NCBI RefSeq assembly: GCF_044647545.1
Contig: NZ_CP172818.1
Length of the DNA: 64,000 nucleotides
Strand: one strand, 5' to 3'
DNA from: Escherichia coli
GTDB taxonomy: Bacteria; Pseudomonadota; Gammaproteobacteria; Enterobacterales; Enterobacteriaceae
Part shown: piece after piece, positions 8,086-54,470 of the stretch
Layout of the letters: the number at the start of each line of letters is the position of its first letter
How positions within the stretch are numbered: the first letter of the stretch is position 1
Made by a program: the position numbers and the translations under genes
The notes under the pieces: generated by a model
Database searches by the model: none
What the model saw: only the letters and a program-made list of their open reading frames with translations
What the model was told of the DNA's origin: nothing

Positions 8086-8097
8086 CACGCTACCGCC
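8086..8097 (-). promoter_or_regulatory. ops element (RfaH recruitment site) within the JUMPstart sequence of the wza leader
   Basis: + strand cacgctaccgcc is the reverse complement of ops GGCGGTAGCGTG; lies about 180 nt upstream of the wza start codon on the transcribed strand. Confidence 0.75.
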
Positions 8098-8345
8098 CCT
8101 GGCTTTTTAGCTACCAATACACTGATTTAGCTTAATTTTTAAAACCCTCTCAACATACAGTCGTTGATGAGAAAGGGTTATTGCGGAAATTAACTTCCGA
8201 ATATAAGGTGACATTATGGTAATTGAATATTGGCTCTCCAATAATGCAGGAGGAAGTGTTACAGCTAACGGAATAGCAGGCAAGGTAACAATTCGGCAAT
8301 TGGCTATTTTTAAGAATTATATTAAGTGTCATTCAATATGGTTTT

Positions 8346-20076: not shown

Positions 20077-22017
20077 TCAGCAGCGGCTTAAATCAGCCTG
20101 CGCCTGAGCCAGTTTTTCTGCCGCCTGACGTAACGGTTCCATCAACGGCATGGTCCGTGCTGGAGCTTGAAGGCGGAATCGCTGCAACTCTGTCGCGCCG
20201 ACAGTCAACGTCGATTCCAGCCGATGTCGTTTGGCGGCCATTTTAGTCAGTACCGCTTGTCTGTCTGCAGGCGTTACCGCTTCGTTCGGCCTGAAAACAA
20301 AACGGCGTTCGCAACTCGCTTTCCAGTCGATAACCGCCTGGGTCAGATGATCACCAAAACCTTTTACTTGCTTAACGCTCCGTCGGGTAACGTCTGCCGC
20401 CGTTTCAATACCAAAGGACCGTAACGCCGCTTTACGCGCAGGGCCAACGCCGGGAATAGAGGCAACATCAATAAAAAATCCCTCCAGAAACTTCTGCTTC
20501 TGCCGTTCCCTTGCGGTGTCCTGAAGTGCTGCCAGATCGCGCTTTTCTTCTTCCGGTAACCCAAGAATTTCGTCCTTCATTTTTTCGAGCATCGTCCGTT
20601 TGGCGATAAAACCTTCCAGCCCGCCCAACTGTTGGATCTGGCTGACTAAATGGTCATAGTCCATTTTTGCGCGATTAAAAGCCTCTCTTCGTTGCTGGAT
20701 TTCTGCTTTGTACGCTTTGCTTGTCAGGCTGCCAATAATCCAGATAGCCGACAGCACAGGAACCAAAATAATATAACGTGGTTCTGTCTGAAGGCCGCAA
20801 AGCAACAGCGATAACGCTGACAGTGCGATCTCAATCAGAATGATGTATTCACGCCTTAACAGGCCTAAAGGAAGCGGCCTGCCAGTCGGTTGGAAATGAT
20901 CGGGTAATGGCAGTTGCAATGCTGGCGGTGCTACTGACGCCATCACCATCGCCCAGACTTTCGCCAGCACAAAATCACCGCTGGTGGTAATGACCTCTTC
21001 GCCGAGATCAATAAAATAGATAACGCCTTGATTATCCAGAGCACACCACGGGCAGTCAGCCAAATGACCGGGATAAACATGCATTGCCGAAACGGTACAT
21101 TTCTTTAACTGTTGGCGTAGTAAATCAAGTGCCGCTACCCACGCTTTTGCCGTCGGACGCCCGGTTGCCACGCCACTTTCCGTGAATGCCTGCTGAAACA
21201 TGGCTTCAACATCGCCCGGTAACATCGACAGCGGAATAGATCGTGGCGGCGGTTTTAAACCACGTCGCTGATTATCTGACGCGTAGGCATAACGGAAATG
21301 GGCAATATCCGTCTCCAGCGCATTACCCGCATCAGAGATAAGCGGTACACCGGAATAAGGATGCCGACCACCAAACAAGACGTGAAAAATCAGCAACGCA
21401 AGGCCAAAATTATCGTGATTCGCGGTGCGTTCAAAGCCAACAAATGACGACAAGGTTTGCAGCTCTGGCGACGTAAAATGCGACACGCCCACTTCGCATA
21501 AATGCAGCGTTCCATTGGCGTTAATCTGAAAGGAGTCGCTATCAATCAACACCACTTTGCTGTCACGGCCTACCATAAAGCTGTTCTGGTTTACGTCACC
21601 CACGACGTGCCCGTGCTCGTGAATCGTAGCAAAAGATGAAGCAATATTGCGCGCAACATAGAGTAGAAAATCCCACGCACAATGAGGGTAACGTTGACGA
21701 CGATGTGCCGGGCTATAGATCATATGAATCGGTTCTTTACCAGAAACTTTTGGCATCATAAAACCGATAACCTTTCCGCCTCGTCCACCGTGAAGCGTTG
21801 CCTGCGGCCAGGCGACATAATTCAACAATTGCGCGTCAGCTGTCGCAGCCATAAAGGCAAGTTTGTCCTGTTTTAAGGCGGGTGGCGGCGTGTGATAAAT
21901 CTTGGCGACGCTATCGACAAACTCCTCGATATCATAAACCGCACCTTCGCCGCCTTTGCCCAGTTCACGGCCAGGCGTAACGCACTCACCAGTAGCAGTA
22001 TATAAAGTGGGTTTCAT
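20077..22017 (-). CDS. yegI: Protein kinase-like protein YegI (N-terminal kinase-like domain, C-terminal membrane-associated region)
   Basis: ORF 20077..22053; start taken at [30 protein letters not shown] (glycine-rich loop); ATG confirmed at 22015-22017; start choice uncertain. Confidence 0.8.
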   Translation of the reverse strand: MKPTLYTATGECVTPGRELGKGGEGAVYDIEEFVDSVAKIYHTPPPALKQDKLAFMAATADAQLLNYVAWPQATLHGGRGGKVIGFMMPKVSGKEPIHMIYSPAHRRQRYPHCAWDFLLYVARNIASSFATIHEHGHVVGDVNQNSFMVGRDSKVVLIDSDSFQINANGTLHLCEVGVSHFTSPELQTLSSFVGFERTANHDNFGLALLIFHVLFGGRHPYSGVPLISDAGNALETDIAHFRYAYASDNQRRGLKPPPRSIPLSMLPGDVEAMFQQAFTESGVATGRPTAKAWVAALDLLRQQLKKCTVSAMHVYPGHLADCPWCALDNQGVIYFIDLGEEVITTSGDFVLAKVWAMVMASVAPPALQLPLPDHFQPTGRPLPLGLLRREYIILIEIALSALSLLLCGLQTEPRYIILVPVLSAIWIIGSLTSKAYKAEIQQRREAFNRAKMDYDHLVSQIQQLGGLEGFIAKRTMLEKMKDEILGLPEEEKRDLAALQDTARERQKQKFLEGFFIDVASIPGVGPARKAALRSFGIETAADVTRRSVKQVKGFGDHLTQAVIDWKASCERRFVFRPNEAVTPADRQAVLTKMAAKRHRLESTLTVGATELQRFRLQAPARTMPLMEPLRQAAEKLAQAQADLSRC

Positions 22018-22774
22018 GGTACCACAGCGCCAGTGCCAACGTTTTATCATCATCGGTACGCTCGTTTACCGCCGGGCTGGACAAAAACTGCTTTAACAAT
22101 TCAGGTAATAAATCGAGTTGTTCCTGCGTTGCTGACGCCAGTCCATTGAAAAACGGGGTAAAGAAAGGCACATGCGGAGAATTATCCAGCATATTTAACG
22201 CCAGTCGCTGAATACCATCCGTAAATGCTGCAACTTTATGCGCACGCTCAGTACTGGTGTAAGTTTCCAGTCTGGAAACAGCATCGTCATCGGTAATGAA
22301 GTGCGTCATATTGGCATATTCCCCCACCATCGGCGTGAGCGGCAGTTGCAAACCGTGACCCAAATCTACCACCACGCCGCCATCGCCAATCTGCATAATC
22401 AAGGTGCCATTAGCTGATGAAATCAATCCCAAAAACGTGCAGGCAAAATCGCGAACCGCTAATTCTTTGGCTTCCGCCTCGGCAAAAAGTCGCTGACGAA
22501 TGGTCAGCACAATGTCCGTTGCGAGGACATCATTAAGCCCCAATTCCCCGCCCTGCACTTTTTGCGACATATAAGCCATCGCTTCATTGACGGCGAGCAT
22601 CGCACCTTCGCCACCCTGCGAGACGCTGCCTGCGCCATCAGCGACAAATACCGACAATAATGGCTGCTGGTCTTCTAACCAGGCAACCTGCATCTGGCAG
22701 GCATCCTGGCAAGACAAGTCAGCGCTGATGTGCGACGTTCCAACGGTTGATGCATAGACCAGACGCCAGCTCAC
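21986..22774 (-). CDS. yegK: PP2C-type Ser/Thr protein phosphatase YegK (PphC)
   Basis: 262-aa ORF with PP2C-like acidic motifs (VFVADGAGS..., IGDGGVVV); 4-bp overlap with yegL and 32-bp overlap with the yegI start as called. Confidence 0.8.
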
Positions 22775-23430
22775 ACTGACGTCCAGCCTTTTGGCGCTTC
22801 CAGCACAACTTCCGTTCCCGGCGTGGAGCGGGAAACCGAACGCAGCGAACTGGATAACCAGCTAAACAGTTCACGGAATTGTAATCCCTGCAGTGGCAAA
22901 GGCTGACGAACGCTGATTTGTGCCAAAGTCTTCATATCCGCCCCCTGAACACCGATGGAAAAGAAGGCAAACTTCTTATCTTCTTCCCCCTGAAACACTT
23001 TGTTGGCGGCAGCCTGCCACTCATCGGTTGGAGCGCCATCGGTGATCAGGAAAATCCACGGGCGATAATAGGAAATACCATTGGCGCGATACTCACGTTT
23101 GCGCTCCTCAACCATATCCAGGGCTTTGGTAATGGCAGCGCCCATTGGTGTATCGCCCTGGGCAAACAGGATGGGCGGGAAAAAATTAGCGGCGCTGGTA
23201 AAGGGTTGTTCCACATGCACCGGGCCGAACGTCACAATACCGAGTTCCACTCTTTTTAAGGCCAGCGAATCGGCAAGCAGCTCATCGCGAAAGGTAACCA
23301 ATCCGGCGTTAAGTTCATTAATAGGTCTACCGTTCATAGAACCAGAAACATCCAGCAGCAAAATGCAGGGACAACGTGGTTCCGGGTTACTGGCAAAATC
23401 GCTGGTGGCAAACGTGATTTGTTCGCTCAT
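22771..23430 (-). CDS. yegL: von Willebrand factor A (vWA) domain protein YegL
   Basis: 219-aa ORF with MIDAS motif (LLLDVSGSM) typical of vWA domains. Confidence 0.85.
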
Positions 23431-23611
23431 AAGAAATCCTTTCTTAGAGAATTATTGAGGTCCGGTATCATACCGATTGCAATAATGAAATAAGAGCAAA
23501 CGAAGAAACTTTCAGAATTAGGCCCGGCGGCGCAGAAAATTTTGCTATTCGCCTCGCAAGAACGGAGAGCCGTCGATTGACACTAAGGGCGGAGTGACAT
23601 AATTTCAGGAG

Positions 23612-23755
23612 TGAGGGTTAGGGAGAGGTTTCCCCCCTCCCCCTGGTGTTCTTAGTAAGCCTGGAAGCTAATCACTAAGAGTATCACCAGTATGATGACG
23701 TGCTTCATCATAACCCTTTCCTTATTAAAAGCCCTCTTCTCCGGGAGAGGGTTTC
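23612..23755 (+). ncRNA. sibA: SibA antisense sRNA (type I antitoxin of ibsA)
   Basis: Strong promoter ttgaca-N17-taattt at 23577-23605; transcript fully antisense to ibsA; terminator hairpin ccctcttctccgggagaggg + ttt at 23732-23754; ~144 nt. Confidence 0.6.
23652..23711 (-). CDS. ibsA: Type I toxin IbsA (19-aa hydrophobic peptide)
   Basis: Minus-strand ORF atgatgaagcacgtcatcatactggtgatactcttagtgattagcttccaggcttactaa = MMKHVIILVILLVISFQAY. Confidence 0.7.
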   Translation of the reverse strand: MMKHVIILVILLVISFQAY

Positions 23756-23947
23756 CCGTTTCAGCGTCCCGCTGAAATCGTCGGCTTACCTCCTTTCGCC
23801 CTGAATGCAGTCTATCGCTAACGCGTGAACAAAATAGTTTCCCCTGTGATTATTGCGTAACGTCTCGCAAAGAATATTTGCTCGCAGGATCGCAGACTAC
23901 AAAGCCTGCGGATTGACAATCTGATTGTGAAGGCATACTTTCAGGAG

Positions 23948-24083
23948 TGAGGGTAGAGCGGGGTTTCCCCCGCCCTGGTAGTCTTAGTATGCTGGCCAGC
24001 TAATCACTAAGAGCACCACGATGATGATCCACTTCATCATGACCCTTTCCTTATTTAAGGCCCCTTCCTCGGGAGGGGCTTTC
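23948..24083 (+). ncRNA. sibB: SibB antisense sRNA (type I antitoxin of ibsB)
   Basis: Promoter ttgaca-N17-tacttt at 23913-23941; antisense to ibsB; terminator hairpin ccccttcctcgggagggg at 24061-24078; ~136 nt. Confidence 0.6.
23984..24040 (-). CDS. ibsB: Type I toxin IbsB (18-aa hydrophobic peptide)
   Basis: Minus-strand ORF translating to MMKWIIIVVLLVISWPAY, paralogous to ibsA. Confidence 0.65.
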   Translation of the reverse strand: MMKWIIIVVLLVISWPAY

Positions 24084-24247
24084 CCGTTTCAGCGTCCCGC
24101 TGAAATCGGCGGCCTACCTCCTTTTGCCCTGAATGCAGTCTATCGCTAACGCGTAGATAAAATAGTTTCCTGTGTTATTACTGGATGCGTGCTCGCAAAT
24201 GCGCCCGTCATTCAGACGATTCCCGACAGTGTTTCATAATTCCTCCA

Positions 24248-24265
24248 TTTTTCTCCCTTATTGGC
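24248..24265 (+). promoter_or_regulatory. BaeR box in the mdtA promoter
   Basis: tttttctcccttattggc matches the BaeR-binding consensus TTTTTCTCCATDATTGGC at 17 of 18 positions, ~55 bp upstream of the mdtA start. Confidence 0.6.
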
Positions 24266-24318
24266 TGGCTACACTAGTATCATTCCGCGAAACGTTTCAG
24301 GAAGAGAAACTCTTAACG

Positions 24319-25566
24319 ATGAAAGGCAGTTATAAATCCCGTTGGGTAATCGTAATCGTGGTGGTTATCGCCGCCATCGCCGCATTCTGGTTCTGGCAAG
24401 GCCGCAATGACTCCCGGAGTGCAGCCCCAGGGGCGACGAAACAAGCGCAGCAATCGCCAGCGGGTAGTCGCCGTGGTATGCGTGCCGGTCCATTAGCCCC
24501 GGTTCAGGCAGCGACCGCCGTAGAACAAGCTGTGCCACGTTATCTCACCGGGCTTGGCACCATTACCGCCGCTAATACTGTTACGGTGCGCAGCCGCGTG
24601 GACGGTCAACTGATGGCGTTGCATTTCCAGGAAGGCCAGCAGGTCAAAGCAGGCGATTTACTGGCAGAAATTGACCCCAGCCAGTTCAAAGTTGCATTAG
24701 CACAAGCCCAGGGCCAACTGGCAAAAGATAAAGCCACGCTTGCCAACGCCCGCCGTGATCTGGCGCGTTATCAACAACTGGTAAAAACCAATCTCGTATC
24801 TCGTCAGGAGCTGGATGCCCAACAGGCGCTGGTCAGTGAAACCGAAGGCACCATTAAGGCTGATGAAGCAAGCGTCGCCAGCGCACAGCTGCAACTCGAC
24901 TGGAGCCGCATCACCGCACCAGTCGATGGTCGCGTTGGTCTCAAGCAGGTTGATGTTGGTAACCAAATCTCCAGTGGTGATACCACCGGGATTGTGGTGA
25001 TCACCCAGACGCATCCTATCGATTTGCTCTTTACCCTGCCGGAAAGCGATATCGCTACCGTAGTACAGGCGCAAAAAACCGGAAAACCGCTGGTTGTTGA
25101 AGCCTGGGATCGCACCAACTCGAAGAAATTAAGTGAAGGCACGCTGTTAAGTCTCGATAACCAAATCGATGCCACTACCGGTACGATTAAAGTGAAAGCA
25201 CGCTTTAATAATCAGGATGATGCGCTGTTTCCCAATCAGTTTGTTAACGCGCGTATGTTAGTCGACACCGAACAAAACGCCGTGGTGATCCCCACCGCCG
25301 CCCTGCAAATGGGCAATGAAGGCCATTTTGTCTGGGTGCTGAATAGCGAAAACAAGGTCAGCAAACATCTGGTGACGCCGGGCATTCAGGACAGTCAGAA
25401 AGTGGTGATCCGCGCAGGTATTTCTGCGGGCGATCGCGTGGTGACGGATGGCATTGATCGCCTGACCGAAGGGGCGAAAGTGGAAGTAGTGGAAGCCCAG
25501 AGCGCCACCACTTCGGAAGAGAAAGCCACCAGCCGCGAATACGCGAAAAAAGGAGCACGCTCCTGA
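24319..25566 (+). CDS. mdtA: Multidrug efflux periplasmic adaptor (membrane fusion protein) MdtA
   Basis: ORF 24172..25566; start taken at [26 protein letters not shown] (ATG 24319), 415 aa; stop overlaps the mdtB start (TGATG). Confidence 0.9.
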
Positions 25567-38015: not shown

Positions 38016-38099
38016 TTAATTTCGATTATTTTTCCCGGATGGAAAATTCTTAGAAACCGATCACATACAGCTGCATTTATTAAGGTTATCATCCGTTTC

Positions 38100-38190
38100 G
38101 CTGAAAAACATAACCCATAAAATGCTAGCTGTACCAGGAACCACCTCCTTAGCCTGTGTAATCTCCCTTACACACACGGGCTTATTTTTT
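38100..38190 (+). ncRNA. cyaR: CyaR (RyeE) Hfq-dependent sRNA
   Basis: gctgaaaaacataacccataaaatgctagctgtaccaggaaccacctccttagcctgtgtaatctccc...gggcttatttttt matches CyaR as I recall it, including the terminator hairpin and U-tail. Confidence 0.8.
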
Positions 38191-54334: not shown

Positions 54335-54470
54335 CCTGCCATAACGTGAAGAAGCAATGACCTGGTGGTCCGTGACTTCCCTACGCTGGCATTATCCAGA
54401 TCAGGTGATACGGGTATTTCTCAGCCTTCACGCAGAAGGGCACCCCGAGTCGTTTGGTTGCGATAATAAA
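54335..54470 (-). promoter_or_regulatory. TPP (thi-box) riboswitch in the thiM leader
   Basis: + strand 54374-54446 is the reverse complement of GGGGTGCCCTTCTGCGTGAAGGCTGAGAAATACCCGTATCACCTGATCTGGATAATGCCAGCGTAGGGAAGTC, the thiM aptamer with its CUGAGA element. Confidence 0.8.

Follow-up and report, generated by a model that had tools for sequence, protein, structure and literature searches.

What do the two tandem repeats between yegL and mdtA of Escherichia coli encode, and does the divergence between them reflect a need of each antisense RNA to recognise its own target? Sib/Ibs loci are a model for how near-identical cis-antisense RNAs distinguish their targets, and a preliminary description of the interval 23576–24175 in a 64,000-nt stretch of E. 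coli DNA (the window) had proposed two duplicated type I toxin–antitoxin (TA) units whose toxin peptides diverged, a pattern it expected if each antisense RNA has to discriminate. Here, we conclude, with a probability of about 97%, that the interval is the array of Sib/Ibs type I TA modules that E. coli carries between yegL and mdtA, in which sibA/ibsA is followed by a sibB/ibsB-type unit. The locus is already known and well studied, and the identification is correct but ordinary. What the analysis adds lies at the population level, namely that arrays hold 1–4 units, some of them recombinant, that two recognition patches are hypervariable and that this strain carries a rare allele.

The array is located between yegL, a vWA-domain gene on the minus strand (22771–23430), and mdtA, an RND adaptor gene on the plus strand with its ATG at 24319. 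It consists of two head-to-tail repeats of ~330 bp at 23541–24199. Repeat unit A (23541–23876, ~336 bp) and repeat unit B (23877–24199, ~323 bp) were delimited from direct-repeat families and pairwise alignment, and a TCGCA(A/G) motif at the unit boundaries is shared with the sibC/D/E units. The repeat search recovers in-register direct copies at a spacing of 328–336 bp, the longest repeat block being 143 nt (23729–23871 versus 24057–24199, 84% identity). Pairwise alignment of the two units agrees with the search and the match is far above chance, which bears out the tandem direct repeats originally proposed. The interval first drawn around them starts at the −35 element of unit A but cuts ~24 nt off unit B, for which homology extends to 24199.

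Several sources name the two units. When the whole window was scanned against Rfam at gathering thresholds, SIB_RNA (RF00113, threshold 56 bits) was placed on the plus strand at 23577–23726 (147.5 bits, E 1e-30) and at 23913–24055 (136.8 bits, E 4e-28), both matches covering model positions 1–147 of 147. The intergenic region is 100% identical to that of E. coli FDAARGOS_497 (NZ_CP033850.1), in which RefSeq lists both ORFs, again between yegL and mdtA, as Ibs toxins of type I TA systems, and it is matched in 5,419 of 5,426 complete E. coli genomes. In K-12 MG1655, the curated ncRNAs at the yegL–mdtA site are sibA, of 144 nt, overlapping ibsA, and sibB, of 136 nt, overlapping ibsB. Hence, Rfam, RefSeq, MG1655 and the literature (PMC2943612) agree with the initial proposal of two type I TA units, each with a ~140-nt antisense sRNA overlapping an 18–19-codon hydrophobic ORF. 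The DNA itself shows two sRNA genes with two ORFs fully antisense to them, their folds, and identity with annotated loci.

SibA extends over 145 nt of the plus strand (23613–23757) and the SibB-type antitoxin sRNA, a rare allele, over 136 nt (23949–24084, plus strand); both follow from the Rfam matches, with ends transferred from MG1655 sibA (b4436) and sibB (b4437). In K-12 the Sib RNAs are known to be expressed as abundant sRNAs of ~140 nt (Han 2010, PMC2943612; PMC12956327), and by analogy SibA and SibB are probably expressed in the window strain. Each is preceded on the plus strand by the −35 hexamer TTGACA (sibA, 23577–23582; sibB, 23913–23918), which was read directly, marks the first position of the Rfam model and is invariant across the compared units of all five types (A to E). 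With the +1 set at the G of GAGGGT, as transferred from the curated MG1655 start, TTGACA lies at −36 to −31 and the −10 hexamer of sibA would be TAATTT after a 17-nt spacer (23600–23605, plus strand), with an overlapping alternative, CATAAT, at 23598–23603 on the same strand. The corresponding sibB hexamer is TACTTT (23936–23941, plus strand). A +1G without an NAD cap has been reported for sibA and sibB, unlike sibC/D/E (PMC12956327).

These promoters had been called strong, which the sequence does not show. The −35 is perfect and the spacer is 17 nt, but both −10 hexamers match the consensus at 3 of 6 positions, and a generic σ70 scan for promoters and terminators between 23400 and 24350 picked out neither of the Sib promoters, no ibs promoter on the minus strand and no Sib terminator on the plus strand. 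The promoter assignment is therefore based on the curated K-12 +1 and not on consensus. The sole promoter-like site called in that range, at 24211–24240, is part of the region upstream of mdtA. The divergence of the −10 elements had also been overstated: TAATTT and TACTTT are one base apart, and at that base B-type units are themselves polymorphic, some in other strains having TAATTT.

The minimum free energy (MFE) folds of SibA (−58.5 kcal/mol, z −4.4) and SibB (−60.1 kcal/mol, z −4.5), computed independently, share a multi-branch architecture and reproduce the RF00113 family structure, with a closing stem, internal hairpins including AUGAUGA/UCAUCAU, and then a terminator. The predicted terminator hairpin of SibA (23729–23754, plus strand) has an 11-bp stem with an A-tract on its 5' side and a U-tract on its 3' side, and the terminator scan reads this hairpin as terminator-like on the minus strand. 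That of SibB (24057–24082, plus strand) has compensatory changes in its stem relative to SibA, and at 80% identity the two terminators are less alike than the 'nearly identical' first reported. Within SibB, the MFE structure places the P5 apical region, the equivalent of target recognition domain TRD1, at 23989–24005 and the P6 hairpin loop, opposite ibsB codons 4–5, at 24028–24033 (both plus strand); strain comparison identifies both as hypervariable among E. coli B-type units. Two plus-strand ORFs that run from the AUGAUGA arm of P6, at 23692–23775 (27 aa) and 24021–24149 (42 aa), were rejected as chance occurrences: they have no Shine–Dalgarno (SD) sequence, they overrun the Sib 3' end and their length is not conserved between the units.

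On the minus strand, translation of 23652–23711 yields the ibsA toxin ORF of 19 codons plus stop, MMKHVIILVILLVISFQAY, and translation of 23984–24040 yields the ibsB-type toxin ORF of 18 codons plus stop, MMKWIIIVVLLVISWPAY, exactly the peptides given in the preliminary description. The former lies wholly within SibA and the latter wholly within SibB, in each case on the opposite strand. The first peptide is IbsA (WP_010723109.1 in the 100%-identical record) and the second is WP_106421789.1, which RefSeq names only 'Ibs family toxin'. Both are highly hydrophobic (GRAVY 1.98 for IbsA and 1.91 for the IbsB-type peptide) and fit the Ibs pattern MMK…(V/L)IS-aromatic-x-AY over 18–19 residues. An SD sequence, AAGGAAAGGG, is found 2 nt upstream of the ATG in both genes; in ibsA it occupies 23714–23723 on the minus strand and, by sequence and fold, is the complement of SibA's single-stranded joint, the TRD2 equivalent. 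Both ibs mRNAs are predicted to begin with a small 5' hairpin and to hold their AUGAUGA start in a hairpin with the UCAUCAU of codons 6–7.

ORFs of 18–19 codons are too short for a statistical gene call, IbsB is labelled 'putative toxic peptide' in MG1655 where IbsA is 'toxic peptide', and premature stops, frameshifts or stop loss have caused ORF decay in some units of other strains (L013_1, L018_3 and L022_2). These observations would suit repeats that are non-coding intergenic elements, the old 'QUAD', with minus-strand ORFs that arise by chance and are untranslated. We consider this highly improbable, given that the ORF, the SD sequence AAGGAAAGGG and the motif MMK…VIS-aromatic-x-AY are conserved in A–E units and across strains, with variation that is largely synonymous or conservative. 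Moreover, Ibs toxicity and its rescue by Sib are published (PMC2943612, PMC8309996), and translation from the internal ATG has been demonstrated for a Salmonella Ibs.

Compared with MG1655 sibA/ibsA (b4436/b4667) and sibB/ibsB (b4437/b4668), the window has the same locus, flanking genes, order and strands. The intergenic regions are 96.6% identical by blastn, with 30 differences in 889 nt, and the differences are unevenly spread: ten fall inside the 57-nt ibsB ORF and none in ibsA. IbsA is 100% identical, and the window SibA differs from that of K-12 by a 1-nt insertion in a C-run and one terminator base. In the second unit, the ibsB differences change the IbsB peptide (L4W, L5I and F15W), the P5 apical region of SibB, which holds 6 of the 30 differences, and the P6 loop. 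With 3 of 18 residues different from K-12 IbsB and only the family name from RefSeq, the second toxin is IbsB by position only, and its earlier naming stands in that sense. Another six differences cluster at 24109–24134, in the conserved flank downstream of sibB.

This flank is the best-conserved part of units A and B, and the contrast drawn earlier between a conserved downstream flank and a diverged ORF is well founded. Between the two units, the −35 hexamer is identical (6/6) and the −10 hexamer nearly so (5/6), and the promoter spacer between them is 35% identical; identity is 62% in the Sib 5' part, 75% in the anti-ORF segment, 88% in the segment opposite the initiation region (anti-TIR) and 80% in the terminator. 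Beyond the Sib 3' end it reaches 96% over the initial 25 nt and 89% over the following 63 nt, and falls to 43% further downstream. The conserved flank covers 23758–23845 in unit A, with a palindrome at 23759–23777, and 24085–24173 in unit B, with a palindrome at 24087–24105. It lies outside the Sib/ibs overlap and is therefore uninformative on discrimination. For ibsC and ibsD, the sites where transcription begins have been mapped ~18 nt past the Sib 3' end (PMC2943612), and by analogy the A/B flanks should carry, on the minus strand, the promoters of ibsA and ibsB, each with the opening bases of the leader; these promoter positions are likely rather than mapped. Conservation of the flank is specific to the A/B units, because the flanks of sibC/D/E are unrelated beyond ~25 nt. 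It also corresponds to no known RNA family, since a permissive, sub-threshold Rfam scan of the intergenic region returned nothing besides SIB_RNA at E ≤ 1. The minus-strand ibs 5' ends would be expected near 23770–23777 and 24098–24105; an ibsA 5' end near 23802 would instead mean a long leader with a AAGGAGGT motif.

In the mechanism by which the array would work, a plus-strand promoter in each unit (TTGACA, 17 nt, TAATTT or TACTTT, +1G) would drive a structured Sib of 136–145 nt that ends at the intrinsic terminator, and a weaker minus-strand promoter in the conserved flank would give an ibs mRNA of ~160 nt, of which the SD sequence, start codon and entire 18–19-codon ORF are, by the cis-antisense layout, perfectly complementary to Sib. 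Pairing would begin at exposed regions, the apical P5 loop meeting the ORF in its 3' part and the joint, which is single-stranded, meeting the translation initiation region (TIR), and would then spread, so that the mRNA is no longer translated and RNase III cleaves the duplex. The Ibs peptide, if made, would enter the inner membrane as a short helix and cause depolarisation, lower ATP and a growth stop.

For the Sib/Ibs family this scheme is established. The ~140-nt Sib RNAs cover the whole TIR and ORF of the ibs mRNAs, the cognate Sib represses, and overexpression of the Ibs peptides, 18–19 residues long, is toxic (Han 2010, PMC2943612). RNase III-cut double-stranded RNA at ibsA/sibA has been captured in vivo in K-12 (PMC7373196), IbsC depolarises the membrane (PMC8309996) and in Salmonella an Ibs peptide acts as an inhibitor of the ATP synthase Fo sector (bioRxiv 10.1101/2025.05.26.656083). 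The Salmonella gene called 'ibsA' was rejected as an orthologue or functional proxy: its position at yqiK–rfaE corresponds to the ibsD/E locus of E. coli, and it is therefore not the orthologue of the window ibsA. A search of the literature found no experimental test of the window IbsB allele; by analogy, the W4/I5/W15 peptide is probably toxic and kept in check by its own SibB.

Whether the divergence of A and B serves discrimination is a separate question. Discrimination between cognate and non-cognate targets through variable regions of Sib is published for SibC and SibD (Han 2010, PMC2943612). SibC recognises the ibsC mRNA through two independent domains, TRD1 in the P5 loop, directed at the ORF, and TRD2 in the single-stranded joint, directed at the initiation region, and a swap of either TRD1 or TRD2 re-targets SibC to ibsD (PMC2943612). 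The two domains have been mapped only for SibC and SibD, and their equivalents in the window are assigned by alignment. In the TRD1-equivalent region, A and B differ at 5 of 17 apical positions, and in the TRD2-equivalent region they are identical over 14 nt. Paired in register, SibB and the ibsA mRNA can join in a helix of 24 bp, one pair being G·U, that spans the start codon and SD sequence; for SibA and ibsB the possible helix is 22 bp long, has two G·U and lies within the ibsB ORF, and their helix in the initiation region is broken by an A·C mismatch. A contiguous 22-nt duplex is enough for cross-repression (Han 2010, PMC2943612), and ibsA is a documented exception to discrimination, as it is repressed by non-cognate Sibs and cells without SibA are viable (PMC2943612). 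The in-register non-cognate helices in the window support caution on discrimination, with ibsA as the exception. The target discrimination invoked in the preliminary description thus has a published model behind it in SibC/SibD, but for this array it has to be weighed against the behaviour of ibsA and the possible 22–24-bp non-cognate helices.

Tandem duplication of ibs and copy-number variation between strains are already documented, as is the distribution of the family across species (PMC2887945). In a sample of 21 E. coli genomes, chosen across the identity range, the array has one unit in one genome, two in seven, three in ten and four in three. Several units are clear recombinants: the single unit of one genome (L004) combines an A-type body with a terminal B-type flank, two genomes (L009 and L010) have an A-type promoter joined to a B-type body, and two more (L008 and L015) have an A-type body joined to a B-type terminator. 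The flank is a mosaic of few haplotype blocks across strains. IbsA is nearly invariant in the sampled genomes, and the variation of B-type peptides is almost confined to residues 4–5 (LL, WI, IL, RL or LV) and residue 15 (F, W or Y). Among complete genomes, the A-type body is detectable in 4,490 of 5,426, and 61 of 5,349 records (~1% of complete genomes) contain a match of ≥99% identity to the SibB allele of the window, the next-best matches being at 95.6%.

The polymorphism of B-type units is focused on two loop patches of Sib. Using regions defined from the MFE fold and non-singleton polymorphic positions among 21 unique B-type units, we find that 10 of 23 positions are polymorphic in the P5 apical region and P6 loop, versus 3 of 113 elsewhere (Fisher 6e-7), and that only one of the other 29 unpaired positions is variable. 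In A-type units the P5 and P6 loops are essentially invariant. The RNA changes where the peptide is conserved: codons 12, 13, 16 and 17 of B-type units have synonymous changes only and codon 15 stays aromatic. At least 11 combinations of P5 and P6 patches occur among 36 units, and the peptide stays hydrophobic and aromatic at the patch codons.

We tentatively suggest that B-type units behave as recombining RNA 'specificity alleles', in which polymorphism in the P5 apical loop and a 4-nt core of the P6 loop is mixed and matched between units. The window allele, with WI at residues 4–5 and W15, would then be a rare fine-scale recombinant, and arrays of 1–4 units would arise by unequal crossover in the conserved flank. 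If true, sRNA–mRNA recognition is actively diversified within a species, and the asymmetry between A·C and G·U at 23712/24041 would explain why ibsA, and not ibsB, tolerates loss of its cognate Sib.

Many of the same data can be read without selection for discrimination, as neutral drift of old paralogues combined with homogenisation and shuffling through unequal recombination and gene conversion, which would leave the TA identity of the locus unchanged. Arrays of 1–4 units with clear recombinants and a mosaic flank are what such a process would produce, and both the possible 22–24-bp non-cognate helices and the repression of ibsA by non-cognate Sibs fit with it. One genome (L013) has three B units with identical recognition patches, and although co-resident B units differ in 15 of 18 pairs, their difference does not significantly exceed that of random pairs (permutation p = 0.10); a p value of 0.002 is obtained only after post-hoc removal of the genome with the three identical copies. 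Drift and shuffling do not readily account for polymorphism that is concentrated in the P5 apical region and P6 loop of B-type units, spares nearly all other unpaired positions and the loops of A-type units, and alters the RNA where the peptide is preserved, and the TRD1/TRD2 swaps re-target SibC to ibsD experimentally (PMC2943612). We regard drift and shuffling as a possible explanation of the divergence, but not a probable one.

The specificity-allele interpretation, if true, would go modestly beyond Han et al. 2010. If confirmed, the B-type units would provide a natural allelic series for RNA–RNA recognition specificity, with the understanding of the system itself unchanged.

Besides sibA/ibsA and sibB/ibsB of MG1655, several other known systems are close to the array. 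sibC/ibsC of K-12 shares with the window units the Rfam family, a fully overlapped ORF (19 aa in ibsC) and the overall architecture, in which the fold runs from a closing stem and 5' G/C hairpin through a long hairpin, with its recognition loop at the apex, and the AUGAUGA hairpin to the single-stranded anti-SD joint and terminator. It differs in being a single unit, located at fau–serA, in having a flank that is unrelated to the A/B flank beyond ~25 nt past the terminator, and in its transcript start, which is an NAD-capped +1A where sibA and sibB have an uncapped +1G (PMC12956327). The sibD/ibsD–sibE/ibsE, ldr/rdl and zor/orz loci likewise combine a small hydrophobic toxin with an antisense or adjacent sRNA and are duplicated within one intergenic region, with a copy number that varies between strains (PMC2887945). 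However, the Ldr and Zor toxins are unrelated in sequence to Ibs, and their sRNAs overlap the 5' UTR only or lie beside the gene; Sib, by contrast, spans the complete ORF and the TIR. hok/sok of plasmid R1 has no sequence similarity to Sib/Ibs, but it is likewise a type I TA system in which an antisense RNA blocks translation, the duplex is cleaved by RNase III and the peptide depolarises the membrane. It differs in that Hok is ~50 aa long, Sok targets the overlapping mok leader frame and not the toxin ORF, and the system serves plasmid maintenance.

Nearly all the polymorphism of E. coli B-type units, those resembling window unit B, is held in two patches of the antisense RNA, which in SibB are the P5 apical region (the TRD1 equivalent, 23989–24005) and the P6 loop (24028–24033). 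When the yegL–mdtA loci L003–L024 from the sampled E. coli genomes were compared, 10 of the 23 positions in these patches were polymorphic, against 3 of 113 elsewhere, and the P5 and P6 variants occurred in at least 11 mix-and-match combinations. Of 5,349 records, 61 gave a match to the window SibB allele at ≥99% identity. In the yegL–mdtA intergenic region, ibsA is untouched by the 30 differences between the window and K-12, ten of which lie inside the ibsB ORF.

The array itself is also variable, with one to four units (mode three) in the regions of L003–L024 corresponding to window 23431–24318. The same loci contain recombinant units, joining an A-type promoter to a B-type body or an A-type body to a B-type terminator, as well as ibs ORFs decayed by premature stop, frameshift, stop loss or a Y19D substitution. 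No megablast-detectable match to the A-type Sib body was found in approximately 17% of complete genomes.

The best-conserved portion of the A/B repeat is the flank beyond the Sib/ibs overlap (23758–23845 and 24085–24173, minus strand). It carries a perfect palindrome, UUUCAGCG-GGA-CGCUGAAA (23759–23777 and 24087–24105), an invariant Shine–Dalgarno (SD)-like AAGGAGGT (23788–23795) that has no start codon downstream, and a −10-like TAGACT (23809–23814), together with a polymorphic block (23799–23807) whose minus-strand sequence is TTCAGG, TTGCAT or TACAGG. A σ70 promoter scan returned zero calls inside either copy of the flank; its sole σ70-like call in the region, TTCAGA–18–CATAAT (24211–24240, plus strand), lies outside the repeat units, upstream of mdtA. 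On the other side, the array is adjoined upstream by yegI (protein kinase), pphC (PP2C phosphatase) and yegL (vWA) at 20077–23430 on the minus strand, a trio whose stop and start codons overlap in the annotation of the identical RefSeq record. Elsewhere in the window, Rfam gathering-threshold matches were obtained for the CyaR/RyeE sRNA (38098–38187, plus strand, 86.8 bits), a TPP riboswitch (54361–54457, minus strand, 71.2 bits) and a JUMPstart element (8086–8124, minus strand, 57.3 bits).

Within the units, the Sib terminator hairpins (23729–23754 and 24057–24082) are terminator-like on the minus strand too, as a hairpin followed by CUUUUAAUAA, because each is flanked by an A-tract on its 5′ side and by a U-tract on its 3′ side. 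On that strand they fall in the ibs leader, directly upstream of the SD, and judging from this arrangement their minus-strand reading could attenuate ibs transcription. Two plus-strand ORFs of 27 codons (23692–23775) and 42 codons (24021–24149) begin at the arm of the Sib P6 hairpin that carries AUGAUGA. Both were judged to be chance frames, given that they are without an SD, extend beyond the 3′ end of Sib and show no conservation of length.

Comparison of the translation initiation regions (23703–23726 and 24032–24055) revealed a differing base, A at 23712 versus G at 24041, and K-12 has the same bases at the equivalent positions. SibB is predicted to form a 24-bp helix with a single G·U pair on ibsA mRNA, and an A·C mismatch breaks the predicted helix of SibA with ibsB mRNA; non-cognate pairing across the initiation region is thus, by base complementarity, asymmetric between the two units. 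This asymmetry could account for the published repression of ibsA by non-cognate Sib RNAs.
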